A DNA stretch of 64,000 bases, from the NCBI GenBank assembly GCA_903874345.1, contig CAIQRY010000065.1, positions 2,679 to 66,678 on the forward strand, written 5' to 3'. The notes beneath the pieces are model-generated. The model saw only the letters and a list, made by a program, of their open reading frames with translations, did not search any database and was not told the DNA's origin. Numbering within the stretch: position 1 is the first letter of the stretch; each line of letters begins with the position of its first letter. The stretch is from an uncultured bacterium. GTDB taxonomy: Bacteria > Patescibacteriota > Patescibacteriia > Patescibacteriales > UBA12465. Below, piece by piece: positions 21,696-60,439 of this stretch. Made by a program: the position numbers and the translations under genes.

Positions 21696-21701
21696 CTCTC
21701 G

Positions 21702-21776
21702 GGGGTATGACGGGGTTCGAACCCGCGACCCTCAGATCCACAATCTGATGCTCTAACCAACTGAACTACATACCCC
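21702..21776 (-). tRNA. tRNA-His (anticodon GTG) with genomically encoded G-1 paired to C73; CCA not encoded
   Basis: Reverse complement folds as a cloverleaf: 7 bp acceptor GGGTATG/CATACCC plus extra 5' G opposite C73, D-arm GTTC/GAGC with AGTTGGTTA loop. Anticodon stem TCAGA/TCTGA with loop TTGTGGA, T-arm GCGGG-TTCGAAC-CCCGT. Confidence 0.9.
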
Positions 21777-43395: not shown

Positions 43396-44445
43396 TTAAA
43401 GTTTCTTATCGAGCAAGAAAATAATTAGTCCCATAGCCACGCCGATGCCGGCCACCACCCAAAAACGCATGACAATTTTTGCCTCGGGCCAACCGACCGC
43501 CTGGAAATGATTATGAATGGGCGATGATAAAAAAACTTTTTTATGACGGAAGCGTTTAGACAAAACCTGAATAATAACCGAGAGGGATTCGATTAAAAAG
43601 ACACAACCAATAAACAATAATAAAATTGAGCTATTGGTTAACATGGCAATAACCGCGAGCGTTATGCCTAGGCTCATGGCACCGGTATCACCTAAATAAA
43701 AGCGGGCCGGCGGAATATTAAACCAGAGAAAGGCAGATAAAGCCCCAATAATCACGCCGCAAAAAGTCGCTAGTTCATAACGACCTAAGACGAAAGAGAT
43801 AACGCTAAACGCGGCGAAGGAAATAAGTAAGGTCCCTGGCGCTAAGCCGTCTAATCCATCGGTTTCGTTTACGGAAAAAGAAGTGGCGACCAGAATAAAA
43901 ATGAAAATTGGAATATACCAGGCGCCGATTTCAAAATTACCAAGAAAAGGCACATGAAAAACGGTCCAATCTAATTTAAAATAAAACCAAAGGGCGCCGA
44001 CTAAAGCAATTAGCGTATAAATCAACAAACGATGACGGACTTTTAGTCCGCCCCCGCCAAAAACACCCTTCCCGCGTACATCAAGGTAATCATCCAGCAA
44101 ACCAATTAGTGCCGTGGCAATTAAAGCACCTAGCGGCAACAAGGTTTCGCTACGAGACCAGAAATTCAAATGTTTAATAATCCCAAAAGGTAAATACTGC
44201 GCTAAAAGATAAGAGACGATCATGAAAATCAAAACCGTGCCCCAAATTAAAACACCGCCCATGGTTGGCGTGCCTTCTTTGTGCGCATGTAGCTGACTAA
44301 AAATTGGCGTCGCGCCGTTATTTCTAATTTTCTTGCCTAATTTGTATTTATAGAGAAAATGCGTCCAGAGCGGCGTCACTAAAATCGTAAAAATAAAAGC
44401 CAGCGTGGTCAGAAAAAGGATTTTGATAATATAAAAATCAACCAT
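43396..44445 (-). CDS. mraY: Phospho-N-acetylmuramoyl-pentapeptide transferase
   Basis: 349 aa; LLDDYLDV, NETDGLDGLA motifs of MraY. Confidence 0.9.
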   Translation of the reverse strand: MVDFYIIKILFLTTLAFIFTILVTPLWTHFLYKYKLGKKIRNNGATPIFSQLHAHKEGTPTMGGVLIWGTVLIFMIVSYLLAQYLPFGIIKHLNFWSRSETLLPLGALIATALIGLLDDYLDVRGKGVFGGGGLKVRHRLLIYTLIALVGALWFYFKLDWTVFHVPFLGNFEIGAWYIPIFIFILVATSFSVNETDGLDGLAPGTLLISFAAFSVISFVLGRYELATFCGVIIGALSAFLWFNIPPARFYLGDTGAMSLGITLAVIAMLTNSSILLLFIGCVFLIESLSVIIQVLSKRFRHKKVFLSSPIHNHFQAVGWPEAKIVMRFWVVAGIGVAMGLIIFLLDKKL

Positions 44446-44455
44446 AGAGGATGAA

Positions 44456-44869
44456 TTAAAAAAAGTTTATTAAGAAAATAGACATTAGAACTAAACTTAA
44501 AAATAAACCAAAAACCGCGGCGGCGCCTAAGAGAAGATGGGTAATAACCTTAAAGTCCGCTTGGCGATAAAAGAAGGAGGACAAAATCAAGGCGACAAAA
44601 CAAGCGACTAAGCCAAAAATCGGATACAAGAAAATACGACTCGGGTCGCCGACTAAATCTACTCCAAAATCGACATTATAATGCAAAACTAGGAGATCGC
44701 CGGTTAAATTATGAAAAATTAACCAGGCTTGCAACCAGGCTAAAATCTGCCAAAAAAGCAAAATCGGCAGATAGACACGGGTCGGATAAAAACTCCAAAC
44801 AGCCAAAAAAGCCGCGCCTATTTCCTGCCCCCGGGTATGGAGACGTGCGTAGAAATTAGAGTAAGCCAT
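44456..44869 (-). CDS. Hypothetical membrane protein
   Basis: 137 aa, four hydrophobic segments, no recognisable motif. Confidence 0.45.
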   Translation of the reverse strand: MAYSNFYARLHTRGQEIGAAFLAVWSFYPTRVYLPILLFWQILAWLQAWLIFHNLTGDLLVLHYNVDFGVDLVGDPSRIFLYPIFGLVACFVALILSSFFYRQADFKVITHLLLGAAAVFGLFLSLVLMSIFLINFF

Positions 44870-44939
44870 AAAATATTAGTGATATTATCATTTTATCACA
44901 TTTTAACATAATGCCAAACAATGCTATAATAAGAGTATT

Positions 44940-45983
44940 ATGAGTCATAAAATCATTAGTCAACTCTTTCGATTAGCCAAACAGGAGGGGGCACACGGCC
45001 TCGTAATTGAGAGCGGCCTTGACCATTTAGCCCTCGATTATCATTTTCCGGATGGCGCTAAAAAAAGCTTTGCTCTACCCAAGAAATTAGAAAAAGAACT
45101 TTTGGATAGCTTGCGCCAATTGATTAAAGTCGCACCCGGCGAATTGGCTGCTAAAAAATACTGTAAAATTAACGACAAAACCCATGGGGCGGCTTTTTAT
45201 GTTACTATTCTGTCTGGCACTTACGGCGAAAAAATAATAATTAATCTGGTTGAGAAAAAACCGCGCTTGTGGTATTTAAAACAACTGGGCTGTTCGCAAG
45301 CGATTTTAAAAAATCTAAGCACCGGGCTAAAAATGCGGTCGGGTCTAATTTTAGTTAGCGGCCCGGCCTTAAGCGGTAAAAGCGCGACTCTTTATTCCTG
45401 CCTTAAAGAAGTTAACACCCATGATAAAAATATTTACCTTCTCGATGAACGCCCGGAAGAAGTTATTAGCGGCGTTAATATCCTAAATCCGACAAGCGCC
45501 AATTGGGATAAAATTCTCCAACACGATTGTGAGGTCATTGCGGTTGGCGATCTTGATCAAGACGAAAACTTAGAATACGCTGTCCGCGCCGCGGCGACCG
45601 GCCGCCTAGTCTTAGGCGCGATTACGGCGGATAATGTCTGGGCCACTTTTCAGAAAATACTCGCTCTTCCCCTCCCCTTGTCATTAAAGCTCGATAGTCT
45701 TAAGATAATGACGAGCCAGCGTCTGGCTAAAATGAAACGCCAGCCGCGCCCCCGCGCCAAAAACCAACGCCAATTTATCGCTCTCTTTGAACTCTTGAAA
45801 TTAACGCCGACGCTCAAAAAATTCATTTTAGACCACGCGGACGCCTTAGAAACCCGATCCTCAAAAATTACCGATCGCTTTTGGAAGCAACTTGCGACTC
45901 TGGCCGTTAAAGAGGGCTTTGTTCCGCTCACGGCTGAACTGAAGCGCCGCCGCCAGGAAGGAATTCTAAGGGACGCTAATTGA
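44940..45983 (+). CDS. GspE/PilT/ComGA-family secretion ATPase homolog with degenerate catalytic motifs
   Basis: 347 aa; N2-domain end YGEKIIINLV, intact Walker A LILVSGPALSGKSAT. The Asp box/Walker B reads VIAVGDLDQDENL where PilT has VGEMRDLET (Glu to Asp), and the His box reads RLVLGAITA where PilT has HLVFGTLHT (both His lost). Confidence 0.65.
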   Translation: MSHKIISQLFRLAKQEGAHGLVIESGLDHLALDYHFPDGAKKSFALPKKLEKELLDSLRQLIKVAPGELAAKKYCKINDKTHGAAFYVTILSGTYGEKIIINLVEKKPRLWYLKQLGCSQAILKNLSTGLKMRSGLILVSGPALSGKSATLYSCLKEVNTHDKNIYLLDERPEEVISGVNILNPTSANWDKILQHDCEVIAVGDLDQDENLEYAVRAAATGRLVLGAITADNVWATFQKILALPLPLSLKLDSLKIMTSQRLAKMKRQPRPRAKNQRQFIALFELLKLTPTLKKFILDHADALETRSSKITDRFWKQLATLAVKEGFVPLTAELKRRRQEGILRDAN

Positions 45984-46657
45984 TAAAATTATTTATGAAA
46001 ATAAGCTGTGTTATTCCGGCTTACAATGAAGCTTCGCATATTCTCGCGGTCGTCACTCAAGTACGACCTTTTGTTAATGAGATAATTGTCGTTGACGATT
46101 GCTCGAAAGACGACACGGCTCGTTTGGCTAAAAACGCGGGTGCTTTGGTTCTACATCATGTGATTAATCGCGGCCAAGGGGCAGCGCTTAGGACTGGTAC
46201 GGCTTACGCTTTAATAAACGGGGCCGATATAATTATTCATTTCGACGCGGACGGTCAATTTTCGGCTACGGAAATTCCTGATCTGATCAGACCGATTTTG
46301 GAAAAACGCGCCGAAACAGTTTTAGGCTCCCGATTTTTAAATAAAAAATCGGACTTGCCTTGGAGCAAGGAACATCTGATTATGCCGCTGGCTCGTGGTA
46401 TCAACCGTCTATTTTTTAATATTCGCTTAAGCGACCCGCAGAGCGGTTTTCGCGCTCTCAGTCGCGACGCGGCTTCAAAAATAAAAATTCAAAACGACGG
46501 CATGGCGCATTGTAGCGAGATTTTATACCAATTAATGGCTAAGAAAATCAAAGTTCAAGAAGTGCCAATTACCGTCACTTATAACGAATACGGCCAAAAA
46601 TTTTCCGGCGGCCTAAAAATCATCAAAGATCTCTTAATCCAAAAATTAATTAACTAA
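45980..46657 (+). CDS. GT2 family glycosyltransferase (polyprenol-phosphate sugar transferase type)
   Basis: ISCVIPAYNE, VVDDCSKDDT, HFDADGQ (DxD). ATGA overlap with the upstream gene; true start may be the Met at 45995. Confidence 0.8.
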   Translation: MIKLFMKISCVIPAYNEASHILAVVTQVRPFVNEIIVVDDCSKDDTARLAKNAGALVLHHVINRGQGAALRTGTAYALINGADIIIHFDADGQFSATEIPDLIRPILEKRAETVLGSRFLNKKSDLPWSKEHLIMPLARGINRLFFNIRLSDPQSGFRALSRDAASKIKIQNDGMAHCSEILYQLMAKKIKVQEVPITVTYNEYGQKFSGGLKIIKDLLIQKLIN

Positions 46658-46658
46658 T

Positions 46659-46982
46659 ATGTTTCAACAAATTTTGGCTCTCATCATTATTATCTTTTTC
46701 CTCGTCCGTCTGTTCAGACAAAAAAAGAAGCAAAGCGTGAGTGGCAACGAATTTTTGCTTTGGCTAATTTTCTGGCTCTTGGCGGCCGCGGCCATTATTT
46801 TTCTAAAACCGATTGACCAGCTAGTTAAGGCCCTCGGCTTCTCGGGCGCAGCCATTAATATTCTGCTTTATATCACGGTTTTGATTCTTATTTATCTCGT
46901 CTTTCGTCTGCGTCTCACGATTGCTAAAATGGAAAAAAATATCAGCACGCTGAACGAGACTATCGCCATTAAAAAATTATGA
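46659..46982 (+). CDS. Small membrane protein, DUF2304-like GT2 partner
   Basis: 107 aa, two or three TM segments plus C-terminal helix. Typical companion of DPM-synthase-like GT2 genes. Confidence 0.5.
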   Translation: MFQQILALIIIIFFLVRLFRQKKKQSVSGNEFLLWLIFWLLAAAAIIFLKPIDQLVKALGFSGAAINILLYITVLILIYLVFRLRLTIAKMEKNISTLNETIAIKKL

Positions 46983-48106
46983 AAATTGCCCAAATCGTTT
47001 GCGTCTATCCTCCTTACGCCGGTGGCATTAGTAATAGCGCGTCAAAAGTGACCAAACTTTTAGCCGGTCACCATACGATTGTTAATTTTACACCGACAAC
47101 TTTAACACCGTGGCTGAAATATGGCCACGGCGCTTTTTTACCGCAACTTTTATGGCGTTTGCGAGGCTTTGATTATATTTACTTACATTACCCTTTCTTC
47201 GGGACAGCGGAAGTCGTTTGGCTATTTAAATTATTTTGCCGAAAACCGAAACTCATCGTTCATTATCATATGGACGTTAAGAACCTTAGCTTACTCGCAA
47301 GAATTTTAAGTTTCCCGAGTCGGCTTATCCGTTATTCTTTATTGAAACAGGCCGAGACCATCGTCACCGCCAGCCTTGACTATGTTGAGCATAGCCAAAT
47401 TAAAAAATTCTATGCCGCTTATCCCTCAAAATTTAAAGAGATTCCTTTCGGCCTTGATTTAAACGAATTCCAACCAAAATTAATTAACCGCGATTTAGGG
47501 AACGGCGTTTTGGGCAAAGCTAAGGAGATTGTTCATTATATTAACGATCATTTTATTAAACGAAATCGTCTTAATCTCTTATTCGTCGGGGCACTCGATT
47601 CGGCCCATTATTTCAAAGGCGTTGCTATCTTGCTTAACGCTTTGGTCGTGACGACGCCGCGTCATTGGCAATTAACTATTGTGGGCGACGGTAACTTGCG
47701 ACCCGAATACGAAGCCTTGGCCCGCGAACTCAAAATCGAGAAACAGGTAGAATTTACCGGTAAACTTGGGGGTAGCGATTTAGTGCGTCAATTCCAGAAT
47801 GCTGATTTATTCGTTTTGCCATCGATTAACAGTAACGAAGCGTTCGGTATTGTTCTAACCGAAGCTTTGGCTTGCGGCGTACCGGTTATCGCTTCGGATC
47901 TACCCGGCGTCCGCCGCGTCTTTACGGATCATCAGGAGGGATTATTAATTACACCCGGTAGTGTTCAAGATTTAAAAAAGAAAATAGAATTTATTTTAAA
48001 TAACGAAGAGCTGCGCCGGACAATGGCGGTTAGCGCCCGACGTCTCGCGGAAGAAAAGTATGATTTGAGCGTAATGGGGCATAGACTGGAAGAATTGTTT
48101 ACATAG
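46979..48106 (+). CDS. GT4 family glycosyltransferase
   Basis: 375 aa; GT-B C-terminal motif EAFGIVLTEALACGVPVIASDLPGV. Confidence 0.8.
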   Translation: MKIAQIVCVYPPYAGGISNSASKVTKLLAGHHTIVNFTPTTLTPWLKYGHGAFLPQLLWRLRGFDYIYLHYPFFGTAEVVWLFKLFCRKPKLIVHYHMDVKNLSLLARILSFPSRLIRYSLLKQAETIVTASLDYVEHSQIKKFYAAYPSKFKEIPFGLDLNEFQPKLINRDLGNGVLGKAKEIVHYINDHFIKRNRLNLLFVGALDSAHYFKGVAILLNALVVTTPRHWQLTIVGDGNLRPEYEALARELKIEKQVEFTGKLGGSDLVRQFQNADLFVLPSINSNEAFGIVLTEALACGVPVIASDLPGVRRVFTDHQEGLLITPGSVQDLKKKIEFILNNEELRRTMAVSARRLAEEKYDLSVMGHRLEELFT

Positions 48107-48128
48107 GTAGCTCATACATTAATAAAAA

Positions 48129-49184
48129 ATGAAAATTGCTTTACTCAACAATTTATATGAGCCTTTTAACCGCGGCGGCGCGGAAAAAGTCGTTTCTCTC
48201 CTGGCCCAGGATTTTATTAATCAGGGCCACGAGGTTTTTATTATTACGACTAGACCAATAAATGCAACCGAACCGAAGATCGATTCGCTTAAAGTTTATT
48301 ATCTCCCGTCCCGCTATTATGACTTAAACAGGCTTTCAAAAATGGCGCGTTTCTTTTGGCAGGTCGGGAATGTCTTTGATTTGGTCCAGACGAAAAAAGT
48401 GAAGGCCATCCTAAAAAAAGAGAAACCGGATTTAATCTCCACTCATAATCTCATGGGCCTAAGTTTTTTAACCCCGCGTCTTATCCGTTGCTTAAAAATT
48501 CGTCAGGAACATTATCTCCACGATATTCAGCTACTTCACCCCTCCGGTCTGATGTTTTACGGCCAAGAAAAAAAAATAGATTCCCTGTCCGCTAAATTTT
48601 ATCAATTATTCACCCGCTGTTTCTTTGCTTCCCCGGTCAAAGTAATTTCTCCGTCCGAGTGGCTTATGGAACAATATAAACAACGCGGTTTTTTTCGCCG
48701 TTCCGAATTAGAAGTTAGACCTTTTAAATTAGCACCGGAACAAAAAATAGTTAATCAGCCAGCGAGAACGAGCGGCCGCCATTTCCTCTACGTCGGTCAG
48801 ATGGAGGATCATAAAGGGATTTTCTTATTAATTAATGCTTTTAAAAAATTACCAGATAAGCAGGCAAAACTTATTATGGTCGGCGACGGCACTAAATTAT
48901 CAAGGGCCAAGGAACAAGCCTCAACCGACCAAAGAATTAGTTTTTGGGGTAAGTACCAGGGCCAGGAATTAGAAAAGCTCATGGCCCAAAGCGACTACTT
49001 AGTAATTCCTTCTCTGTGTTATGAAAATTCGCCAACCACTATTTTAGAAGCCCATGCTTGCGGCGTCCCGGTTATCGCCGCGCGTATCGGAGGAATTCCG
49101 GAGATTACCAATCGGGACGATAAATTATTTGAACCTGGGAATGAGACGGACTTACTCAATAAATTGCAATCTCAACCTTCTTGA
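48129..49184 (+). CDS. GT4 family glycosyltransferase
   Basis: 351 aa; ENSPTTILEAHACGVPVIAARIGGIPE. Confidence 0.8.
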   Translation: MKIALLNNLYEPFNRGGAEKVVSLLAQDFINQGHEVFIITTRPINATEPKIDSLKVYYLPSRYYDLNRLSKMARFFWQVGNVFDLVQTKKVKAILKKEKPDLISTHNLMGLSFLTPRLIRCLKIRQEHYLHDIQLLHPSGLMFYGQEKKIDSLSAKFYQLFTRCFFASPVKVISPSEWLMEQYKQRGFFRRSELEVRPFKLAPEQKIVNQPARTSGRHFLYVGQMEDHKGIFLLINAFKKLPDKQAKLIMVGDGTKLSRAKEQASTDQRISFWGKYQGQELEKLMAQSDYLVIPSLCYENSPTTILEAHACGVPVIAARIGGIPEITNRDDKLFEPGNETDLLNKLQSQPS

Positions 49185-49256
49185 CAAAAAATAAATTAAA
49201 TTCTAATATAAAAGATTCTTTAACAACGCAATAAACAAAAAAACAATAACTACACC

Positions 49257-49694
49257 ATGAAAAAAACCGAAATCAATTTACTGAAATTCTTGTTGGAAAA
49301 TTCTCGTATTGAAGAAATCCGAATTTGCCTACAGCTTGATCAACCCGGGAAATTTGCGTATGCTCTTCCTGTTTTACAGACCTTAAAAAACAGCTTCGTC
49401 AAAAAAGGCGAGCTAATACCTATCCAGTCAATCGCGGCCGTAACCGAGGAAAAAATCGCCGTCACAATCGGAGATTTGAAAACGATTGCCACTGTCAACC
49501 TAAAAAGAAAACATTTTCGTTCGGCCGCTCGGGCCGCCGCTCTCTTAAGTATTGGCCAAAGCAACGGACTCCGCCAAAAGATTCTTGATGGCGCGGTTAA
49601 AAAAGCCCACAAAGAAAAAGGACATCCGCTCTTTGCTCAAAACGTCACCTACGTCATGGAAACTCTGTTTCCGAATAAAACTCTGATACTTTAG
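49257..49694 (+). CDS. Hypothetical protein
   Basis: 145 aa ORF, no motif recognised. Confidence 0.45.
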   Translation: MKKTEINLLKFLLENSRIEEIRICLQLDQPGKFAYALPVLQTLKNSFVKKGELIPIQSIAAVTEEKIAVTIGDLKTIATVNLKRKHFRSAARAAALLSIGQSNGLRQKILDGAVKKAHKEKGHPLFAQNVTYVMETLFPNKTLIL

Positions 49695-49731: not shown

Positions 49732-50160
49732 ATGGAAAAAGACACCGCTATCAATTTCTTTATTTTCCTTTTATCCGGAACATCAATAAACGGCCGCCAG
49801 GAAGAATTCTACGCTAAATTCATCAAGCCGGAATGGCACGAAAAAATTCTGGCTCAACTCTTAAATCATGGCCTTGTTAATGAAATCGAGTATTTTTTCA
49901 AAGTCACTAACCAGGAAATTTCCTTGAACTTCGAGGAAGTCCATACCTTAGTCAGAGTAAACCGCGAAAAGAAACTTTTCAATCAAGCCCTGAAAGCCGC
50001 TACCTACCACAGTGGTGCTGGCACCAAAAAAGCATCTTTCGACTCAACCCTCCAGCAAGCTCTGGAATTCTACTTAACTAACCCGAATGATGAAAAAATC
50101 GATGCCGCGGTCCATAATGTGGTCGCGACCTATCTCAAACATTACCCCATCATCAAATAA
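49732..50160 (+). CDS. Hypothetical protein
   Basis: 142 aa ORF, no motif recognised, followed by a terminator. Confidence 0.45.
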   Translation: MEKDTAINFFIFLLSGTSINGRQEEFYAKFIKPEWHEKILAQLLNHGLVNEIEYFFKVTNQEISLNFEEVHTLVRVNREKKLFNQALKAATYHSGAGTKKASFDSTLQQALEFYLTNPNDEKIDAAVHNVVATYLKHYPIIK

Positions 50161-51256: not shown

Positions 51257-53284
51257 CTAATTATTTACTTTTATTATACCAAGATTAACACCGCCGCTCC
51301 AGCTCTCTTCATAAGCGTAGAAAGATTCTAAGAGCCTTCCCTGCCCGTCAAAAACACGAACATGCGGCGCGGCGCCAGAGAGAGCGCTCACCGCTATTTC
51401 GCTAATACCATCATTATTCAAATCACCGGCCACGACATTCATGCCGCCCTGCCAATTTTTACTATAAACCAAGAACTGTTTAATTAAATTCGCATCATTA
51501 TCAAAAACCTTAACCAAAGGGTCGCGACCCCGACCGGGAGCGGTAATTATTTCAGCGCGGCTATGATTACTGCGCCCATTAATATTTGCTACCGCGATTT
51601 TGACGCCGCCTTTAAAAGTTTTTTCGTAAGGAAAGAAAGATTTAAGCAGGCGACCGCTCGTCGTATAAATCCTTACCTGAGGCGAATTACCCGACCCATA
51701 ACCAATCGCGACTTCCGCTTGGCCGTTGCCGTCTAAGTCGCCCACCGCAATATTTAAACCGCCCAGCCAGTTTTTATCCGTAACCAAAAACTGTTTTTCG
51801 AGCCGACCCGAAAAATCAAAGATTTTTAATTGTCCGGCGCCACCAGTCGCTGGTACAGTTAAAATCTCCGCCTGATTATCATTATTAATATCGGCTACTG
51901 CTACTTTTAATCCCCCTCGAAAAGTTTTGGGCCAAGCTAAAAATTTCTTAATTAATTTACCTTTCTGGTCATAAATAAAAATATTCGGTTCAGTACCTGG
52001 CGCGGCGCCAAAAATAATTGCCTCTTGGCCAGTTCCCGCCACGTCGCCAGTCGCGATACTTTGTCCGCTATGATTATCTTTTTTAACCGGCCAAGCCTGA
52101 ACCAAGTCGCCGTTACTAGCTGTTATTTTTAAATCCTTTTGGCCAGAGGCTGGAATACTAATCAGACGCCGGACATGATCATAAAGTCTGTCTTTGGCCA
52201 TTTGCACCGCGCGGTCCACATTTAAACGGCCATTACCTAATTGTCCTAAATAACTAGGATTGAGGCGGTTAATATTATCCGTCGAGGCAAATAAAATATT
52301 CACTATTTCTCGCTGACTTAATTCCGGATTGGCTTGGGCAATTAAGGCCAGAGTCGCTGTGACTAGAGGCGCCGCCATGGATGTTCCGGACCAATAGCCA
52401 TCATAATACTTATTCGGATTAGCCGGATCGCTCCCCGGGGTTGCGGCATTAAAAAAACTGATGCCCGGCGCGGTTAAATCAACGCAATGAAAACCATAAC
52501 TGGAAAAACGCGCTTTTTGATCAAGAGCGTCTGTCGCCGCCACGCCAATCACCATATTTTCCCCCTGATCGCCATCATAACAAGCGGGATAAATCGGTGT
52601 TTTATCAATATCATAACCCTCACCGCTCACTTGATCGTTCCCGGCCGCGGCGACAATAATTATGCCGGCGTCATGGGCGCGTTTAATCGCTTCCTGGAGA
52701 GCTTCGGAATAATTAAAACTAACAAAACTTAAATTAATAATATCCGCTCCATTACTAATCGCGTAATCAATCGCTCGAATAACGTCGCTAACTTTCCCAG
52801 CGCCTTTATCGTCAAGCGCTTTAAGCGCCATAATCTTGGCCTGCCAAGTAACTCCGGCCACGCCTTCGTTATTGTTTCCTTCGGCCGCGATAATGCCTGT
52901 CACCATCGTCCCGTGAGAAACACCGGCTTCAGTCCAGCCCGTCGCAAATTTCGGCGAGGGGTCAGGTACATTATTTACGAAATCCCAGCCATGGATATCA
53001 TCAATAAAACCGTTATGATCGTCATCCTTGCCGTTAGTGGCCACTTCTTTTTTATTCGTCCAGATATTATTTTTTAAATCAGGATGACTAATATTAATAC
53101 CCGAATCAATTACGGCAATAACTATGTCCGGGCTAGCAGAAATTTTTTCCCAGGCACTATCCGCCTTGATTTTCTGCAAATACCACTGATTGCCATAAAA
53201 AGGGTCGTCGGGCGTAACCGTCGCCAAAACCGGCTCTACGCAAAGGAGAGAGAGTATAAAAAAAGATGTTATCAGTTTCTTCAT
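51257..53284 (-). CDS. Secreted subtilisin-like (S8) serine protease with C-terminal FG-GAP-type repeat domain
   Basis: Signal peptide from Met at 53284 (the ORF track's upstream TTG start at 53326 would overlap the next gene). D-H-S triad blocks VIDSG, HGTMVTGIIAA, GTSMAAPLVTA. Then five or more repeats of the GDxxGxGQxExxxG / DxNNDxxxE calcium-binding FG-GAP pattern. Confidence 0.8.
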   Translation of the reverse strand: MKKLITSFFILSLLCVEPVLATVTPDDPFYGNQWYLQKIKADSAWEKISASPDIVIAVIDSGINISHPDLKNNIWTNKKEVATNGKDDDHNGFIDDIHGWDFVNNVPDPSPKFATGWTEAGVSHGTMVTGIIAAEGNNNEGVAGVTWQAKIMALKALDDKGAGKVSDVIRAIDYAISNGADIINLSFVSFNYSEALQEAIKRAHDAGIIIVAAAGNDQVSGEGYDIDKTPIYPACYDGDQGENMVIGVAATDALDQKARFSSYGFHCVDLTAPGISFFNAATPGSDPANPNKYYDGYWSGTSMAAPLVTATLALIAQANPELSQREIVNILFASTDNINRLNPSYLGQLGNGRLNVDRAVQMAKDRLYDHVRRLISIPASGQKDLKITASNGDLVQAWPVKKDNHSGQSIATGDVAGTGQEAIIFGAAPGTEPNIFIYDQKGKLIKKFLAWPKTFRGGLKVAVADINNDNQAEILTVPATGGAGQLKIFDFSGRLEKQFLVTDKNWLGGLNIAVGDLDGNGQAEVAIGYGSGNSPQVRIYTTSGRLLKSFFPYEKTFKGGVKIAVANINGRSNHSRAEIITAPGRGRDPLVKVFDNDANLIKQFLVYSKNWQGGMNVVAGDLNNDGISEIAVSALSGAAPHVRVFDGQGRLLESFYAYEESWSGGVNLGIIKVNN

Positions 53285-53319
53285 ATAACATCTAAATAAT
53301 AGCACAATTAATAGTATTT

Positions 53320-54531
53320 TTACCAATTTTCCAGCTCAGAAAGCGTTTCCGTCGCACATTTTTTCCAACTGAATTCTTTAGCGCGCGCCAAACCCTTCTC
53401 TTTTAGTATTTGGCGTAAATTACCGTCGGTTGCAATCTGGGCCATGGCGGCGGCAATCAACCGTTTATCATTCTGATTAAAATACAAAACCGCGTCCGAG
53501 GCAATTTCTCTTAGTACTGGAATATCAGAAACCGCCGTCGGTAGTCCGCAGGCAAGAGCTTGCAAAACCGGGATTCCAAAGCCTTCATGTTTAGACGGAA
53601 AAATAAACGCGGTCGCGCCGTGGAATAAATAAGGTAAGTCCGCCTCAGTAATCCAACCGGGCATCATCACTTCCCGTTCCAAATCAAATTCTTCAATCGC
53701 ATATTTAACTTCATCATAACCGAAGCTCGCGTCGCCAGATAAAACTAACTTAATCTTAATTTCCGGATGATCTTCGTGTAAAATAGCGAGCGCTTCAATT
53801 AAGGCCGGCGTATTTTTTTTCTTCTCCAGACGACCGACATATAAAAAATACGGTTGTTCTAAACCATATTTTATCAAAACATCCGCTATTTTTTCCGAAT
53901 GAACGTTAGCCTGATACAAGGCATCATTATAACCGTTGTGAACGACTTTAATTTTTGTTTCTTTGGTCTTCGGATATAAGCTTAAAATTTCTTGCTTCGT
54001 GAAATGAGAAACCGTAATTATTTTCCGCGCGTGACGCAAAGCAAAGGCTGTCGACCAATATAAATAGTCAACGGAATTGGATTGATATTTACCGAGTGTA
54101 AAGATTTTAATCAAACCATTTAAGACTCGGCGCGAACCCGGGATATGCTGTTTGAGTTTCTGGGAACGATATAAATTTTGCTCGCGAACAAAAGCGATAT
54201 CATGAATCGTATTAACGGTTCGGCGCGGGAAAAACAAGGGTAAAGTATGAGCCGGAATAAAGAGGACATCGGGTCGGCGCCAAATCATTTCCCAGGACAA
54301 GCGGCCGAGCGTCCAAAAAGCATAAAACGGCCAATTTAGATAATGACAAGAAAAATTAGAATTAGTTTTAATCGCTTCTAAGAGTTCGGGCGAAGCCGGC
54401 GCGTCCAAATACAAACGGTACTTATTTTTATGGTCAATGGCCGCTAAATTTTTAATCAAGTAGAACGAATACCACTCGGTTCCGGTCTTGCGTTGACGAT
54501 TCGCCCGCGAAGCGTCGATACCGATAACCAT
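53320..54531 (-). CDS. GT4 family glycosyltransferase
   Basis: 403 aa; HEGFGIPVLQALACGLPTAVSDIPVLREI. Confidence 0.8.
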   Translation of the reverse strand: MVIGIDASRANRQRKTGTEWYSFYLIKNLAAIDHKNKYRLYLDAPASPELLEAIKTNSNFSCHYLNWPFYAFWTLGRLSWEMIWRRPDVLFIPAHTLPLFFPRRTVNTIHDIAFVREQNLYRSQKLKQHIPGSRRVLNGLIKIFTLGKYQSNSVDYLYWSTAFALRHARKIITVSHFTKQEILSLYPKTKETKIKVVHNGYNDALYQANVHSEKIADVLIKYGLEQPYFLYVGRLEKKKNTPALIEALAILHEDHPEIKIKLVLSGDASFGYDEVKYAIEEFDLEREVMMPGWITEADLPYLFHGATAFIFPSKHEGFGIPVLQALACGLPTAVSDIPVLREIASDAVLYFNQNDKRLIAAAMAQIATDGNLRQILKEKGLARAKEFSWKKCATETLSELENW

Positions 54532-54550: not shown

Positions 54551-55567
54551 TTATTTGGTGGCTAAGATGCTGCGTTTATAAGAATCCAGATTATCCAAAG
54601 CGATTCCGGTTCCCTTAACAACACAAAGCATGGCGTCGTCGGCCACATAAGCCGGAACGCCGGTCGTGCGCGCGATAAGCTGATCGATATTTCGAAGAAG
54701 CGCACTACCGCCGGTTAAGACGATTCCCTTATCCATGATATCCGCCGCCAGTTCCGGCGGTGTTTTTTGTAAAACTTTTTTGGCCGCGGAAATAATCGCT
54801 TCGAGTTCGTTCTGAATCGCTTCGGTCACGTCATCACTTGAAACAGTAATGCTTCGTGGCAAGCCCGTCACGATATCGCGACCACGAATCTCTAAATGCA
54901 ATTTATCTTCCATATACAAAGCCGAGCCGATATTAATCTTAATTTCTTCCGCGGTTCGTTCGCCAATGGCTAAATTATATTTCCGGCGCACATATTCCAA
55001 GATTGCCGCGTCAAACTTATTACCGCCCACGCGGACCGAAGTCGAAGCAACGATACCGCCTAAAGAGATAACGGCCATTTCCGCTGTTCCGCCGCCGATA
55101 TCAATCACCATATGCCCGGTTGAAGAGCCAATCGGAATATCGGCGCCAATCGCCGCGGCGACTGGTTCTTTAATGATATAGGCAGCTTTGGCGCCGGCGG
55201 CAATAGTTGCTTCAATTACGGCGCGCCTTTCCGTCGAAGAAATACCAGCCGGGACAGCTACCATCACTTCCGGTCGAAATAAGCGAACGCCGCCTAAGGT
55301 TTTATTAATAAAATAGCGGATCATGGCTTCGGTTGCCTTATAATCCGCAATCACTCCGTCTTTTAGGGGCCGAACGGCCATAATCGTATCTGGGGTGCGG
55401 CCAATCATGTCTTTCGCTTCATTACCCACGGCTAAAATCTTCTTATCGTCCAACGATACCGCCACTACGCTCGGTTCATTAATAACAATCCCGCGCTTCG
55501 GCAGGTGTACTAAAGTATAGGTTGTTCCGAGATCGATCCCGATTCGTTTAATAAACATAAGTGGCAA
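54551..55567 (-). CDS. mreB: Actin-like rod-shape protein MreB paralog
   Basis: 338 aa; IGIDLGTTYT phosphate-1, VIDIGGGTAEMAV, MreB family throughout. Second copy besides the one at 60440-61480. Confidence 0.85.
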   Translation of the reverse strand: MPLMFIKRIGIDLGTTYTLVHLPKRGIVINEPSVVAVSLDDKKILAVGNEAKDMIGRTPDTIMAVRPLKDGVIADYKATEAMIRYFINKTLGGVRLFRPEVMVAVPAGISSTERRAVIEATIAAGAKAAYIIKEPVAAAIGADIPIGSSTGHMVIDIGGGTAEMAVISLGGIVASTSVRVGGNKFDAAILEYVRRKYNLAIGERTAEEIKINIGSALYMEDKLHLEIRGRDIVTGLPRSITVSSDDVTEAIQNELEAIISAAKKVLQKTPPELAADIMDKGIVLTGGSALLRNIDQLIARTTGVPAYVADDAMLCVVKGTGIALDNLDSYKRSILATK

Positions 55568-55657
55568 ATAAATACTAATACATCTTAGTATTTTTTGATA
55601 GTTTAGTCAAACAACAAAAGGCCGCGTTCGACGTGGCCTTTTTATTTATTTTAAATT

Positions 55658-56101
55658 CTAATCTATTTCCATGCCTTCTTCTTGACCATCATCCTCACCG
55701 CGTCTTTCTTTCTTATCCTGATTGCGGATAATTTTCTTTACTTTCTCCGCGAACTCGAAGGTATCGAATTCTTCTTTAAAGAAAATATAATCCGCGCCAA
55801 GCTCTAAGCTGCGTTGACGACTATCTTCATCGGAAATATCGGTAAAAATATAAATCTGGACTTCGGATAACTCTTCATCTTCTTTCATTTTCTTAATAAT
55901 TTCAAAACCGTCCAATTTCGGGAGAATTAAATCTAAAATCAAATATTGCGGCGAAAACTCTTTCAGGCGTTTGAGTATTTCTTCTAACTCTTCATCGCCC
56001 TCGGAAGTTTCGACTTCGTAGTCGTCCGCCGTAAATTGCGACTCCAGACCGTAAAGAATGCTGGCGTCGTCTTCGATAATAAAAAGTTTTTTATCGTCCA
56101 T
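55658..56101 (-). CDS. Stand-alone response-regulator receiver domain protein with an acidic tail
   Basis: 147 aa; IIEDD acidic pocket, LILDLILPKLDG phospho-acceptor region, no output domain. Confidence 0.65.
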   Translation of the reverse strand: MDDKKLFIIEDDASILYGLESQFTADDYEVETSEGDEELEEILKRLKEFSPQYLILDLILPKLDGFEIIKKMKEDEELSEVQIYIFTDISDEDSRQRSLELGADYIFFKEEFDTFEFAEKVKKIIRNQDKKERRGEDDGQEEGMEID

Positions 56102-56131
56102 ATTTTTGTTTGCCCCCGATAGCGGGGTAAA

Positions 56132-57109
56132 TTATTGTTTTAAAGGCTGCCACCAAGCGGTATTCGTCTTGTACCATAAGGCAGTGTGCCGTAAACCGTC
56201 CTTAAAGTCAATCTGCGGCTTAAAACCGAGTTCATTTTTAGCTTTTGTAAAATCAATAGCGTAACGCAAATCATGACCCTGGCGATCAGGGACATATTCA
56301 ATCATTTCCGGACCAAGACCCATCAGTTCCAAAATCAATTGCGTAATTTCTAAATTGCTTTTCTCGCTACTGCCACCTAAACAATAAGTTTCGCCGCTCT
56401 TCCCTTTTTTAAGAATCAAATCGACACCACGGTTATGGTCATCAACATGAATCCAATCGCGAATATTTTTCCCGGCGCCATAAACCGGCACTTTTTTTCC
56501 TTCGATTAAATTGGTAATGAAAAGCGGAATTAATTTCTCCGGATATTGATAAGGGCCATAATTATTCGAGCAATTAGAAATCGTCACCGGCAAACCATAA
56601 GTATGATAATAGGCGCGAACCAAGTGGTCGCTCGCGGCTTTCGAAGCGCTATAAGGCGAGCGCGGATCATAGGGCGTGGTTTCGTTGAATTTTTTATCAG
56701 TCAAAGATAAGGAGCCGAAAACTTCATCGGTTGAAATATGATGAAAACGAATCGGCCGACCCGAGACATAAATATTCTTAGCCGCCTCGAGTAAAACGCG
56801 CGTCCCTTCGACATTAGTATGAACAAAATCAGCGCTATTTTTAATTGAACGGTCGACATGACTTTCGGCTGCAAAATGAACAACGATATCGATATCTGGC
56901 ATTAAATCATTAACCAAAGTCGCGTCGGTGATGTCGCCTTTAACAAAATGGTAACGCGGATCGTTTTCAACATCTCGTAAATTTTCTAAGTTTCCGGCGT
57001 AAGTCAAAACATCCAAATTAACAATTTGATCCTCAGGATAATTTTTTAACCAATAGTGGATGAAGTTAGAACCGATAAAGCCGGCCCCGCCGGTAACGAG
57101 TAATTTCAT
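56132..57109 (-). CDS. rfbB: dTDP-glucose 4,6-dehydratase
   Basis: From internal Met MKLLVTGGAGFIGSNF; catalytic YSASK; RfbB family length. Start at 57109 sits 3 nt after the HIT gene stop. Confidence 0.85.
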   Translation of the reverse strand: MKLLVTGGAGFIGSNFIHYWLKNYPEDQIVNLDVLTYAGNLENLRDVENDPRYHFVKGDITDATLVNDLMPDIDIVVHFAAESHVDRSIKNSADFVHTNVEGTRVLLEAAKNIYVSGRPIRFHHISTDEVFGSLSLTDKKFNETTPYDPRSPYSASKAASDHLVRAYYHTYGLPVTISNCSNNYGPYQYPEKLIPLFITNLIEGKKVPVYGAGKNIRDWIHVDDHNRGVDLILKKGKSGETYCLGGSSEKSNLEITQLILELMGLGPEMIEYVPDRQGHDLRYAIDFTKAKNELGFKPQIDFKDGLRHTALWYKTNTAWWQPLKQ

Positions 57110-57111
57110 AA

Positions 57112-57507
57112 TCAACTTTTTAACTTTTTTAAAATTTCCTCTACTTCCCCGGGGCCGTATTCTGATTGCGGCCACTGTACATGGCCATCACCCGCATGAC
57201 GTGGAATAACATGAAAATGTAAATGCGGTACAATCTGACCGGAAATCGGATCATTATTTTCTGTGACATTATAACCGACGACACCTAGTTTTTCTTTTAA
57301 TAGCTTCCCCATTTTTTTCACAACCAGCATGACGGCGATAAAGTCATCTTCACTAATATCATCAATATTCTGATAATGCTTTTTAGGCATAACTAAAATA
57401 TGTCCGGGATTAACCGGTTTGATATCTAAAAAGGCCAAGACCTCCTCGTCCTCATAAACCTGATGACAAGGGATATCGTGCGCGATAATTTTACAGAAGA
57501 TACACAT
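57112..57507 (-). CDS. HIT (histidine triad) family nucleotide hydrolase/transferase
   Basis: 131 aa; HLHFHVIP histidine triad, N-terminal CxxC. Confidence 0.85.
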   Translation of the reverse strand: MCIFCKIIAHDIPCHQVYEDEEVLAFLDIKPVNPGHILVMPKKHYQNIDDISEDDFIAVMLVVKKMGKLLKEKLGVVGYNVTENNDPISGQIVPHLHFHVIPRHAGDGHVQWPQSEYGPGEVEEILKKLKS

Positions 57508-57642
57508 ATAAATTTATTTGATCAGGTACGCAGACTAGTGTTTCGGAGCGCATATGATTTCGTACAGAAAAAATGAGCGTTAGTGAATTTTTTCCACAGA
57601 AATCATCCTAAGCGAAGAAATACTAGTCGGCGTAACTGAATT

Positions 57643-58095
57643 TCATCTGATTTGATAACGGCTATCGGCCTTGTTTTCCCAGCGGATTTCATCAACCTCC
57701 TGTTTCTTTTCAATCCCCTTATATAATTTATCCGGCAAATTAATGCTTAACGCTGGAATCTCGGAAATACATTTATAGCCATGGACGACGCCGGGCGGGA
57801 CAATAACCAGGCTCGGACTCTTTTCACCGACTTCGATCTCCATTGCTTCGCCTTTAGTCGGCGAATTCTCCCGCCGGTCCCATAAATACAATCGGAAATC
57901 ACCCGGACCTAAGAAAACAAAACAATCGCTTTGGCTAACGTGTTCGTGTGGGCCGCGAATGACGCCGGGGTTGGTCAGACTAACATAAGACATGACAATA
58001 TCAAAATCTAGTTCGTCGCGTCGAAAAATTTCAGTCAACCAACCGCGTTCGTCAGTATTTCTCGATAAGGGTTTTATAATGACACCATGAATCAT
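57643..58095 (-). CDS. RmlC-like cupin (dTDP-4-dehydrorhamnose 3,5-epimerase/FdtA-type sugar isomerase family)
   Basis: 150 aa; DERGWLTE and IRGPHEH motifs of the RmlC/FdtA cupins. Confidence 0.65.
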   Translation of the reverse strand: MIHGVIIKPLSRNTDERGWLTEIFRRDELDFDIVMSYVSLTNPGVIRGPHEHVSQSDCFVFLGPGDFRLYLWDRRENSPTKGEAMEIEVGEKSPSLVIVPPGVVHGYKCISEIPALSINLPDKLYKGIEKKQEVDEIRWENKADSRYQIR

Positions 58096-58109
58096 ACAAT
58101 TCTTAATTA

Positions 58110-59057
58110 CTAATTCTTAATTTTGAATTTAATCAGGCCGTTCTGCGCGCCTTGATGGGCAATTTTTGCGGCCGCGTTTTTTAAACTTAAGAGTAGAGCC
58201 TTATTAATATCACTCTGATAAATAGCTAGCGCAGCGGCAAAAGTCGAGTTAAAGATATCACCAATACCGGTCGTATCCACCCTCTTCACTTCTTTCACAA
58301 TTTTCTGGTGATAAATTTTATGACCATCATAAGCCGCGACGCCATCTCGTCCCAAAGTAATCAAAACGATTTTCGGTCCGAAGCTGGAAATAATTTTTAA
58401 GAGAGTATCAATTTTTAAGGCGGCCGGTTTCAAATGTTTATGTTTTTCCGAGCTCAGGATTAATTCAACAGCTTCTTCTTTGTTTAATGCAAAAACTGAG
58501 GTCTTTTTTAGGAAAGGTGCTAAAAATTTTAAACCGCGATCAAATTGTCTTGCCCCCGGATTCCAACAAATTTCCGGCCCCCCGGGACCAATAACCGAAA
58601 AAATTCGTCTTAAAACCTTAACCCAATCACCGGACAAAGAAGCTAAATAAATATTTTTCGTCTTTTTAAGCGCCTGTAAACCGGCTCCGTTAACAGTCAA
58701 AGAGCGGTTTGCTCCTCTTTCAACAAACAGAATTCTTTCACCAATCGAATTAATTAAATCAAAAGCCGTGCCGCTTTCGGCGCCTCTAATTTTTTCAATG
58801 AGTTCTGTCTTAACACCGCGCCCCTTTAAATTATTAATTATTTTCTGGCCGCCTTCATCAGCGCCAATGGCCGAGAGGCAAGCCGTTTTAAAACCGAAAT
58901 GCGCCAAATTAACCGCCGCGTTCGCCGCGCCACCGCCAAAGGAATAATAAAATTTGTCTATCTTTATTTTCGCGCCGTATTCTAAGGCGACGCCCCGATC
59001 AACAAAGAAAGAAATGTCGCGCGTCGCACCACCAATAGCAATAAAATCGTAAGTCAT
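58110..59057 (-). CDS. PfkB family carbohydrate kinase
   Basis: 315 aa; N-terminal GG motif (FGGGAANAAV), C-terminal DTTGIGD anion hole motif. Confidence 0.8.
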   Translation of the reverse strand: MTYDFIAIGGATRDISFFVDRGVALEYGAKIKIDKFYYSFGGGAANAAVNLAHFGFKTACLSAIGADEGGQKIINNLKGRGVKTELIEKIRGAESGTAFDLINSIGERILFVERGANRSLTVNGAGLQALKKTKNIYLASLSGDWVKVLRRIFSVIGPGGPEICWNPGARQFDRGLKFLAPFLKKTSVFALNKEEAVELILSSEKHKHLKPAALKIDTLLKIISSFGPKIVLITLGRDGVAAYDGHKIYHQKIVKEVKRVDTTGIGDIFNSTFAAALAIYQSDINKALLLSLKNAAAKIAHQGAQNGLIKFKIKN

Positions 59058-59084
59058 ATAAAAAAATTAAGTACTTTTATGATA

Positions 59085-59648
59085 TCACGAAAATCGTTTC
59101 GGTTCCAGAAAAAAGGGCTGTAATTTTCGGTTTAGGGCCGCGACCAAATGGTAAGAAAGCAGGGCCGCGAGAAGGCTCCAGGCGCCTTGTTCAAAAAGGG
59201 CCAGCCAAAAATCTTTTTGGACTAAGAAAAAACGAGTGTAATCAGCCGCCGTAAAATAAAATAAACAAGCGACTAGAAAATTATAAAGAATCGTGGCCGC
59301 TAAAATCAAAACAAAGAAAGAGTAAAGGGAGCGATTAGTCAGCCAGTTTTTGAGCATGAGTTGCGCTAAGCCGGCCGTGGTTAGAAGAACGATAATAAAA
59401 AAACCAAAAAATTGAAAAGAAATTAAGTCGAGCCAAAAACCGAGAACAAACGCGGCCCATAAGGCGACACGGAAACCGAAAAAAAATAGAGTGAAAATCA
59501 AAAAAATCAAAACTAAATTGATTTGTCCGAACCAAGACGGCCAGGCGCTAATTAAAGAAAATTGGCCGATGGCTGCCAAGGAAGCAAAAAAAATAAAAAT
59601 AATAACCCTGAGTGCCGCTTTCATACTAAGGAATAATGATACTGACAA
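59085..59648 (-). CDS. mreD: Rod shape-determining protein MreD (membrane)
   Basis: 187 aa, five hydrophobic helices, immediately downstream of and overlapping mreC. Confidence 0.6.
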   Translation of the reverse strand: MSVSLFLSMKAALRVIIFIFFASLAAIGQFSLISAWPSWFGQINLVLIFLIFTLFFFGFRVALWAAFVLGFWLDLISFQFFGFFIIVLLTTAGLAQLMLKNWLTNRSLYSFFVLILAATILYNFLVACLFYFTAADYTRFFLVQKDFWLALFEQGAWSLLAALLSYHLVAALNRKLQPFFLEPKRFS

Positions 59649-60438
59649 TCGTCAGATTATTAAAATCTACTAGCGGTTCAATCGTCGCGTCAGTCCAAAC
59701 CGCATTACTCTCGCTGCGCACTTCCTTAACGCGACCAATGACGAGACCCCGCGGAATATTAGCGCCTAGGCCGGAAGTGACGACCGTCGCGCCGGCATTA
59801 ATTTTTTCGGTTTGCGGAATATAATTCATTTTAATGGTTAGGCCTAAGTCGCCATCCGTTACGCCTTGCGTCTGGCTTTGATTCTGAACCATGGCCGCCA
59901 ACTTGCAACCTAAACTGGTCGTCAAGCAAATCCGCGCACTCGTGTCTTTTAGGGCCGTAATTTTACCGACAATCGTCCCGGAAGGATCGGCCACCGCCAA
60001 GCCAATTCTTAAGCCATCATTCGCTCCGCGATTAATAACTAAATCCCGACTCGCTTCCCCGGCCTCGGCCGCTCCTTCTTGGCCAATAATGCCGGCCGTC
60101 ACCGCCCGCCAATTATTAGTCGCTAGAAAATTAGCTTGCGCCCGCAATTTTACATTTTCAGTCGCTGTTTCCTGACAATTCGCATTGGCAACCGTTAGCT
60201 CGGCTACTTGTTTTTCGAGTGTATCGAGCCGTGTTGTTAAATCTGTTTGATTCTGGCGAGCCGTATAATTATGATTAAAATTACGACCCACGCTATATAA
60301 ATAACCGGAGAGCGGTTTAGTAATTAGAGATAAAAAATTCTCCACCGGACGGAGAACGTGAGCCCCATGTAAAAAAACCAGCAGTCCGAAAACTACTAGC
60401 CAAACGAGTAAAGTTTTATAGCGTTTTAATTTAACCAT
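59626..60438 (-). CDS. mreC: Rod shape-determining protein MreC
   Basis: 270 aa; N-terminal TM, coiled-coil, beta-rich C-terminal domain with GLVIGRV motif. Confidence 0.8.
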   Translation of the reverse strand: MVKLKRYKTLLVWLVVFGLLVFLHGAHVLRPVENFLSLITKPLSGYLYSVGRNFNHNYTARQNQTDLTTRLDTLEKQVAELTVANANCQETATENVKLRAQANFLATNNWRAVTAGIIGQEGAAEAGEASRDLVINRGANDGLRIGLAVADPSGTIVGKITALKDTSARICLTTSLGCKLAAMVQNQSQTQGVTDGDLGLTIKMNYIPQTEKINAGATVVTSGLGANIPRGLVIGRVKEVRSESNAVWTDATIEPLVDFNNLTIVSIIIP

Positions 60439-60439
60439 A

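Follow-up and report, generated by a model that had tools for sequence, protein, structure and literature searches.

A predicted non-catalytic PilB/GspE core at the head of a glycosyltransferase operon in Patescibacteriota

Why would a row of glycosyltransferase genes begin with a relative of a pilus motor? GspE, PilB and PilT motors are usually treated as uniformly catalytic hexamers. The question is raised by a stretch of 64,000 nucleotides (nt) from an uncultured bacterium (GTDB lineage Bacteria; Patescibacteriota; Patescibacteriia; Patescibacteriales; UBA12465), namely positions 2,679 to 66,678 of the forward strand of contig CAIQRY010000065.1 (NCBI GenBank assembly GCA_903874345.1), which we call the window. 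An earlier note, made from the DNA letters alone, had described a 347-amino-acid (aa) protein encoded at 44940-45983 as a catalytically degenerate ATPase heading a glycosyltransferase operon. Our analysis identifies this protein, hereafter the pseudo-ATPase, as very probably a descendant of PilB/GspE that has become a pseudoenzyme and is predicted to be non-catalytic. Loss of the catalytic residues, purifying selection and a retained fold, which together mark a pseudoenzyme, are all found in it.

The pseudo-ATPase matches the Pfam family T2SSE (PF00437) over residues 86-264 with 80.8 bits (cut-off 24.9; E=1e-22) and aligns with EpsE of Vibrio cholerae (1p9r) over residues 4-265 (E=7e-20). Among PDB sequences, PilB and GspE proteins are matched at E values of about 1e-19 to 1e-20, and PilT proteins at 1e-13 to 1e-5. 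The NCBIfam models TIGR02538, TIGR02533 and NF007755 all score below their equivalog cut-offs (108.1 against 617 bits (GspE), 91.8 against 630 and 87.5 against 676), as do the PilT family TIGR01420 (62.2 against 319 bits) and ComGA NF041000 (60.8 against 300 bits). The AlphaFold2 (AF2) model has a mean predicted local distance difference test score (pLDDT) of 87.3. Searched with Foldseek, it finds the N2 and RecA-like fold of PilB, GspE (EpsE) and PilF (5tsh, 1p9r, 4ksr and 5it5) at E values of 1e-25 to 1e-27, the best match being PilB 5tsh (E=1.2e-27, TM score about 0.6). The best 23 PDB matches are all PilB, PilF or GspE chains (1e-27 to 5e-20), with PilT, PilU and DotB ranking after them at about 1e-19 and weaker. 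The sequence and fold rankings therefore place the pseudo-ATPase as a PilB/GspE core rather than PilT or ComGA; the previous label, GspE/PilT/ComGA-type, holds for the superfamily and fails for the likeness to PilT and ComGA.

The predicted protein consists of an N2-like domain (approximately residues 1-108) followed by a RecA-like C-terminal domain, and keeps the C-terminal helical segment of PilB/GspE proteins (R..IGLFE ... G.L). It differs from them in starting at N2, without an N1/MshEN domain, and in lacking any CxxC motif beyond the His-box region, so that the tetracysteine zinc site is gone. Its catalytic motifs lie as follows, all on the plus strand:
45360-45383, plus strand: Walker A, GPALSGKS, residues 141-148; intact in the window, degenerate family-wide
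45438-45461, plus strand: remnant of the Asp box, LLDERPEE, residues 167-174; canonical form T-[IV]-E-D-P-[IV]-E-Y
45534-45551, plus strand: remnant of Walker B, VIAVGD, residues 199-204; with Asp for the catalytic Glu and without the Arg of GEIRD
45597-45629, plus strand: remnant of the His box, TGRLVLGAITA, residues 220-230; Arg replaces the first His and Thr the second

A residue-by-residue alignment with EpsE bears out the degeneracy predicted before. The end of the N2 domain, read earlier as YGEKIIINLV, pairs with HGERVVMRLL of EpsE, and the Walker A motif is complete. Further along, the His box of EpsE reads TGHLVMSTLHTN and that of the window protein TGRLVLGAITAD, with both histidines gone, a loss that the family motif comparison below repeats. 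The reported change of the catalytic Glu to Asp is real, and it is seen where VGEIRDLET of EpsE meets VGDLDQDEN; the motif concerned, however, is not the Asp box but the atypical Walker B (hhhhGE), which in the window protein has the form VIAVGDLDQ and has also lost Arg206. The true Asp box is degenerate as well (VEDPIEF in EpsE, LDERPEE here), and two arginines of the N2 domain have been replaced (R87 by Y, R102 by N).

These losses are shared by a well-separated family. A search of 5.8 billion proteins returned about 100 clusters of homologs of 290-360 aa at E ≤1e-50, followed by a gap before ordinary PilB/GspE proteins at an E value of about 1e-19, and an exhaustive profile-free search gave 50 representatives at E ≤1e-30. 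The named records are metagenome-assembled genomes of Patescibacteria or Candidatus Falkowbacteria, and the database names of the proteins are "ATPase, T2SS/T4P/T4SS family", PilB, GspE-like and TadA. The closest homolog (P0002) is 80% identical.

We compared the motifs of 114 family members with those of 16 canonical PilBs. The second His-box histidine occurs in none of the 114 and in all 16, while the first position (222) is Arg in 109 of the 114 and, among the canonical proteins, His in nine and Arg in three. Only two family members keep the Walker B Gly, against 16 of 16; position 204, always Glu in canonical PilBs, is Asp in 38, Glu in 37, Ser in 15 and Asn in 10. Arg87, Arg102 and Arg206, each present in all canonical proteins, are lost in the family, and the Asp-box residues E169, D170 and P171, invariant in the 16, are variable. 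The P-loop has fared no better: its first Gly (15/16 canonical) is Ser in 89/114, its Lys (16/16 canonical) is Arg in 26/114, and a strict GxxxxGK[ST] survives in four of 114 members, the window protein being one of these exceptions. Even in its nearest relatives (P0003-P0006) the P-loop Lys has become Arg. Because the P-loop, position 204 and the Asp box vary even among close relatives, selection is not maintaining the nucleotide and catalytic site. The suggestion that ATP may be bound and not hydrolysed thus agrees with the intact P-loop of the window protein and is doubtful as a conserved function, given how rarely a strict P-loop is found.

What the family does conserve is its own. The motifs LPKKLEK, KKYCK, NW, TGRL and a C-terminal FWEKL...G[YF]xPL are found in its members and are missing from canonical PilBs, and the N2 domain is the best conserved part. 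Between the closest pairs among the relatives' loci that we fetched, the ratio of non-synonymous to synonymous substitution rates (dN/dS, Nei-Gojobori) of the pseudo-ATPase gene is 0.09-0.14 at dS of about 0.8-1.8 (for example L012/L015, dS 0.78); in the same genome pairs it is 0.01-0.05 for mraY, 0.05-0.12 for the glycosyltransferase family 2 (GT2) gene that follows the pseudo-ATPase, and 0.11-0.14 for the last gene of the operon, GT4b. The low ratio, together with the family's own conserved motifs, speaks for a maintained protein and not a decaying pseudogene.

Two observations were made alongside this survey. In one relative, L027, the pseudo-ATPase open reading frame (ORF) at 97-1103 is broken into two frames that overlap (query residues 1-182 and 172-343), by a real frameshift or an assembly error on a contig of only 2.4 kb. 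Just under the family in the search rank P0155, P0157, P0163 and about 12 more proteins of roughly 1000 aa, which carry two complete canonical PilB modules in tandem; one such cluster is named from a Parcubacteria genome.

The genomic setting of the pseudo-ATPase is made up of these features:
44940-45983, plus strand: pseudo-ATPase, PilB/GspE core, 347 aa (ORF; Pfam T2SSE, EpsE alignment, AF2, Foldseek)
45995-46657, plus strand: GT2, putative polyprenyl-phosphate sugar synthase like GacI/PpgS, 220 aa (Pfam Glycos_transf_2, E=3.8e-24; start inferred)
46659-46982, plus strand: DUF2304 small membrane protein, GT2 partner like GacJ/Rv3632 (Pfam DUF2304, E=1.3e-16)
46979-48106, plus strand: GT4a, 375 aa (Pfam Glycos_transf_1), overlapping the DUF2304 gene by 4 nt
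48129-49184, plus strand: GT4b, 351 aa (Pfam Glycos_transf_1), closing the conserved five-gene unit
44456-44869, minus strand: TM137, a 137-aa polytopic membrane protein without a Pfam match, heading the divergent MraY-FtsW-MurG-MurC operon
43396-44445, minus strand: MraY, anchor of the conserved syntenic slot
44903-44930, plus strand: promoter-like site TTAACA-16-TATAAT with a TG extension, the best of the region (consensus match only, 11/12)
44890-44917, minus strand: promoter-like site TTGGCA-16-TAAAAT for the TM137-MraY operon (10/12 matches)

All five co-directional ORFs of the tightly spaced unit reported earlier are present, and Pfam agrees with the identification of each of the four downstream genes. 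With a promoter-like site directly upstream, no gene between and tight spacing, the pseudo-ATPase does appear to head the operon. The plus-strand site ends 9 nt before the ATG at 44940, so that the pseudo-ATPase mRNA would be leaderless or have a very short leader; both promoter-like sites overlap inside the 70-nt gap between the pseudo-ATPase and TM137. Terminator-like matches turn up within the glycan operon no more often than in shuffled sequence. The ATGA overlap claimed for the pseudo-ATPase and the GT2 gene is absent from the window: the stop is TGA at 45981-45983, and a GT2 start at ATG 45995 leaves an 11-nt spacer. An alternative start, TTG 45980, would produce a TTGA overlap with the stop; ATG 45995 is the likeliest start because it yields the 220-aa length found in all homologs.

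The pairing of the pseudo-ATPase with the glycan operon had been thought non-standard, and it recurs in relatives and is hence not a one-off. At all 24 loci fetched through the pseudo-ATPase, TM137-MraY-FtsW lies divergently on one side, and GT2-DUF2304-GT4-GT4 follows directly downstream wherever the contig is long enough; two distant members (P0100 and P0101) have the same arrangement. Across these loci, identity is 75-80% for MraY, 57-71% for GT2, up to 80% for the neighbours overall and 33-49% for the pseudo-ATPase. The far stronger conservation of the neighbours indicates fairly close relatives, in which gene order alone proves little. To remove this relatedness bias, we fetched 80 metagenome loci through GT2 instead and scored the upstream gene. 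A T2SSE-type gene was upstream in 50 of the 80 and absent in 24, and six contigs were too short. Where the ATPase gene is absent, TM137 is directly divergent in seven loci, a co-directional epimerase stands upstream in 16 (rearranged), and one locus is arranged otherwise. The persistence of the glycan operon without the ATPase gene means that the protein is accessory and not required for the pathway.

The slot between the two operons is occupied by genes in very different conditions. At six loci (L071, L072, L080, L081, L093 and L104) it holds a canonical PilB of 578-605 aa with an MshEN domain, the motifs GPTGSGKT, TVEDPIEY, VGEIRD and TGHLVLSTLHT, and two CxxC; the orthologous genes of related lineages are thus ordinary PilBs. 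One full-length protein (P0102, locus L026) is intermediate, with Walker A, the Walker B Glu and the cysteines intact, the His box altered to NGRLVLAARPE and the Asp of the Asp box lost. Eleven loci encode cores of 347-369 aa that keep both CxxC and have no His box, a Walker B of IDDA and degenerate P-loops such as ADDNQGKT and SPEENGAT. The form without cysteines, 287-353 aa long as in the window, is present at 39 non-redundant loci (including those fetched through the protein), and seven loci have an empty slot. Scored with the family hidden Markov model, the cysteine-bearing cores reach 144-211 bits, mostly at least 173, the slot PilBs 166-171 bits, and the best other full-length PilB in a search of 1.8 billion proteins 163 bits. 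That the slot PilBs score highest among full-length PilBs fits descent in place, by a small margin. The states may accordingly be read as a degeneration series ending in loss, an order taken from the states and not from a rooted tree, in which the His box would have gone first, then the N-terminal domain and the P-loop, then the zinc site.

In the lineages with a canonical PilB, genes for signal-peptide proteins have been inserted beside it (L071 4318-5133; L081 3793-4899; L072 664-2253 and 2774-3517; L093 5793-6575). They sit between TM137 and PilB, or in L093 between PilB and GT2, and those of L071, L081 and L072 encode Thr/Ser/Asn/Ala-rich proteins; the inserted genes may encode surface or filament proteins. 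An origin in c-di-GMP (cyclic dimeric GMP) sensing through the MshEN domain of the slot PilBs was considered and dropped, as the N-terminus of the L071 protein, inspected by eye, has no RLGxx[LVI][LVI]xxG.

The decayed forms stand closer to GT2 than the canonical ones. From the ATPase stop to the GT2 start the distance is -4 nt in nine of the 11 cysteine-bearing cores and at most 11 nt in 29 of 36 short forms, 11 of these at -4 nt, so that the 4-nt overlap, absent from the window, is the commonest junction in relatives. In six full-length genes it is 17, 94, 117, 542, 1318 and 1327 nt, and ORF inspection gives about 14 nt for the full-length PilB of L104. That decayed forms are closer to GT2 than working motors is the main, if modest, evidence for a functional and not merely inherited link. 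Combined with purifying selection, this tighter coupling makes the regulatory or scaffolding role suggested in the earlier note more plausible.

The genes downstream suggest what such a role would serve. The window GT2 matches PpgS, the polyprenyl-phospho-GalNAc synthase of mycobacteria (NCBIfam NF058614), with E=3.6e-44 and 150.8 bits, under the equivalog cut-off of 370, and also matches archaeal dolichyl-phosphate hexose transferases. A 220-aa GT2 followed, after a spacer of 1 nt, by a DUF2304 membrane protein has the same order and spacing as GacI/GacJ of Streptococcus pyogenes and PpgS/Rv3632 of Mycobacterium tuberculosis; the window enzyme differs in falling short of the PpgS cut-off (151 against 370 bits). 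DUF2304 is the family to which GacJ and Rv3632 belong; GacJ associates in a complex with GacI, a GT2 enzyme whose GlcNAc-P-undecaprenol synthesis it enhances, and Rv3632 stimulates PpgS (10.1101/180810). By this likeness, the GT2-DUF2304 pair is expected to provide the lipid-linked monosaccharide with which an extracytoplasmic glycan is decorated. GT4a and GT4b are cytoplasmic transferases with no closer assignment, and no GT-C transferase or flippase was found in the scanned parts of the window. The passages drawn on here from the GacI/GacJ report mention no ATPase-like gene at the Gac and Ppg loci (10.1101/180810), unlike the operon described here. dTDP-sugar enzymes are also encoded in the window, and a published reconstruction inferred a wall of murein plus rhamnose for the same order (PMC11809585); a rhamnose wall here could, by analogy, parallel the streptococcal polyrhamnose/GacIJ system.

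Overall, the account that explains these data best, to which we give even weight for and against, is that a dead PilB core, descended in place, has been retained to serve envelope glycan synthesis as a non-catalytic adaptor or regulator. The ancestor would have been a canonical PilB gene lying between the mraY cell-wall operon and the GacI/GacJ-type GT2-DUF2304-GT4-GT4 operon. Its descendant would have kept the N2 and RecA-like core fold, while the MshEN/N1 domain, the zinc cysteines and the N2 arginines disappeared along with the Asp box, the His box and the Walker B Glu. Probably opening the glycan operon under a promoter of its own, and in most relatives apparently coupled in translation to GT2, it would have given up motor work and become nucleotide-independent, or at most nucleotide-binding, in most members. 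The protein would then act in the cytoplasm on envelope glycan synthesis, made together with the GacI/GacJ-like module. Taken alone, the glycan-linked role is putative, and we hold it with somewhat less than even confidence.

Several findings weigh against this account. The loci bearing the ATPase gene all come from close lineages (MraY 66-81% identical), so gene order on its own argues only weakly for a functional link, and the order of the stages is taken from observed states and not from a rooted phylogeny. Of the 74 GT2-anchored loci that could be scored, 24 have the glycan operon and no ATPase gene. Rate covariation, measured by a mirror-tree analysis of 26 taxa with MraY and FtsW as the control, gave a partial r of 0.55 for GT2-DUF2304, the positive control and the highest of all pairs tested; for the pseudo-ATPase and GT2 it was only 0.10, with no specific signal. 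The window protein, moreover, keeps a complete P-loop and an acidic Walker B residue, which makes residual nucleotide binding or slow turnover possible.

Other explanations must be weighed against it. In PilB and GspE the N2 domain makes inter-subunit and partner contacts, and its strong conservation in this family would suit a non-catalytic subunit, brake or assembly factor of a type IV pilus or DNA-uptake machine, binding PilC, PilM or a PilB paralogue, with a glycan neighbourhood that is historical. The slot ancestor was apparently a canonical PilB, many lineages run the glycan operon without the ATPase gene, and BM507 genomes of the same order (NCBI label Falkowbacteria) are reported with PilB, PilC, PilM and PilT (PMC11809585). 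Yet in the scanned parts of the 64-kb window there is neither a pilus gene nor another T2SSE ORF nor a pilin-like N-terminus, and the pseudo-ATPase, unlike a PilB/GspE motor, has no pilus or secretion neighbours there; that decayed forms are coupled more tightly to GT2 than canonical ones is also unexpected of a purely historical link. We consider this explanation unlikely, though worth keeping in view. A partnership with the divergent cell-wall genes (TM137, MraY, FtsW and MurG), as a cytoplasmic adaptor in peptidoglycan synthesis or division, is improbable. It draws on the overlapping back-to-back promoter-like sites in the 70-nt intergenic region, on the adjacency of TM137 in every ATPase-bearing locus, and on rate covariation, in which the top partial r of the pseudo-ATPase is with TM137 (0.51, followed by 0.49 with GT4a). 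But TM137 covaries alike with every gene tested (0.45-0.51), which makes that signal non-specific; TM137-MraY is unchanged where the ATPase gene is absent (L039, L041-L046), and the pseudo-ATPase gene lies on the opposite strand, with translational coupling to GT2.

The remaining two explanations concern activity itself. If Asp204 served as the base and Arg222 replaced a His-box histidine, the protein could be a working, perhaps slow, NTPase, as the intact GPALSGKS and the acidic residue at the Walker B position of the window protein would permit; Arg222 is nearly invariant in the family, and Arg is found there in some canonical PilBs too (3/16). This is very improbable given that the P-loop, position 204 and the Asp box are unconserved even in the closest relatives and that no member of the family has the second His or any of the arginine fingers. 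Functionless decay toward loss, for its part, would account for a graded series that ends with the gene absent, for the split frame of L027 and for the faster evolution of the pseudo-ATPase than of its neighbours (33-49% against 58-80% identity). The selection analysis largely refutes it, with dN/dS of 0.09-0.14 at dS 0.8-1.8, and intact full-length ORFs in about 100 clusters, many invariant and family-specific positions and a confidently predicted fold leave it scarcely credible.

A non-catalytic role for the PilB core would have partial precedents. TadZ of Tad pili and ArlH/FlaH of the archaellum are P-loop proteins with lost or reduced hydrolysis that act as adaptors in pilus-like machines; they belong to MinD/ParA-like and KaiC/RecA-like families, are not derived from GspE/PilB, and stay in filament gene clusters. 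The nearest precedent is a PilB-type protein that affects polysaccharide without ATP hydrolysis or pili: in Myxococcus xanthus, ATPase-deficient PilB supports exopolysaccharide production independently of pilus assembly, and the nucleotide-free form has been proposed as the signalling conformer (PMC5544727). That PilB, however, is a bona fide motor that also signals via the Dif pathway, whereas the window protein has apparently lost motor function for good and is encoded inside a glycan operon. The bolder possibility that in a single bacterial lineage a motor ATPase has turned into a nucleotide-independent structural subunit of an envelope glycan machine, docking on the GacI/GacJ-like synthase, a GT4 or TM137, seems to us rather doubtful; if true, such a subunit would tie the decoration of wall glycan to peptidoglycan synthesis, whose genes lie next to it.

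To our knowledge, no pseudoenzyme lineage of the GspE/PilB family has been described before, and this would be the first. Literature searches returned no described PilB/GspE pseudo-ATPase or PilB-glycosyltransferase operon, which is not proof of absence. The components are all of known kinds; the novelty seems to lie in a dead motor shared by a whole clade, whose intermediates survive in a single chromosomal slot. A selected, clade-wide derivative with essentially no catalytic or arginine-finger residues left would show that the fold can be reused beyond mechanical work, and with intermediates alive in related genomes, the path of conversion could be reconstructed and the versions swapped experimentally. 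An annotation that counts the short forms as pilus motors would credit these genomes with more pilus or competence capacity than they have. The locus also marks a GacI/GacJ-type wall-glycan module beside the division and cell-wall (dcw) genes, conserved in the poorly understood envelope of the Candidate Phyla Radiation (CPR).

The surroundings of the operon are rich in envelope genes. The scanned genes of the window include MurB, an ATP-binding cassette exporter, a UXS-like epimerase, an S8 protease with FG-GAP repeats, a third GT4, two MreB, MreC, MreD and the dTDP-sugar enzymes. TM137 precedes MraY in all the lineages examined, whether the ATPase gene is there or not, and belongs to no Pfam family; it is a conserved first gene of the CPR mraY operon. 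Between GT4b and the epimerase lie two small ORFs without a family match, 49257-49694 (145 aa) and 49732-50160 (142 aa), and a promoter-like TTGACA-17-TAATAT is found at 49181-49209. The two ORFs were considered as paralogues, which they are not by any mutual similarity, and as part of the glycan unit, which their absence from this position in most relatives does not support.

A 689-aa subtilase with C-terminal FG-GAP repeats (51257-53326) lies beside the epimerase and the glycan operon in nearly all related loci, with 47-69% identity across loci, rearranged ones included, and 39% in the most divergent (L084); its conservation beside the operon points to membership of the same envelope module. 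Two MreB paralogues (54551-55567 and 60440-61480), together with MreC and MreD, form part of a large envelope and shape supercluster (54551-61480) that adjoins the glycan operon. Between the paralogues are a stand-alone response-regulator receiver (55658-56101), dTDP-sugar dehydratase- and epimerase-like genes, a HIT protein and a PfkB kinase. The dehydratase ORF with a GTG start (56132-57175) overlaps the HIT gene (57112-57507) by 64 nt; since the dehydratase domain is reached only at residue 23-26, translation of that ORF probably begins at a later codon. At a greater distance, histidyl-tRNA synthetase (16655-18079) has histidine ammonia-lyase (14955-16652) on one side and urocanase (19556-21568) on the other, and tRNA-His (21701-21775) adjoins them; in a reduced CPR genome it is unusual to find two genes of histidine catabolism grouped with those of histidine translation.

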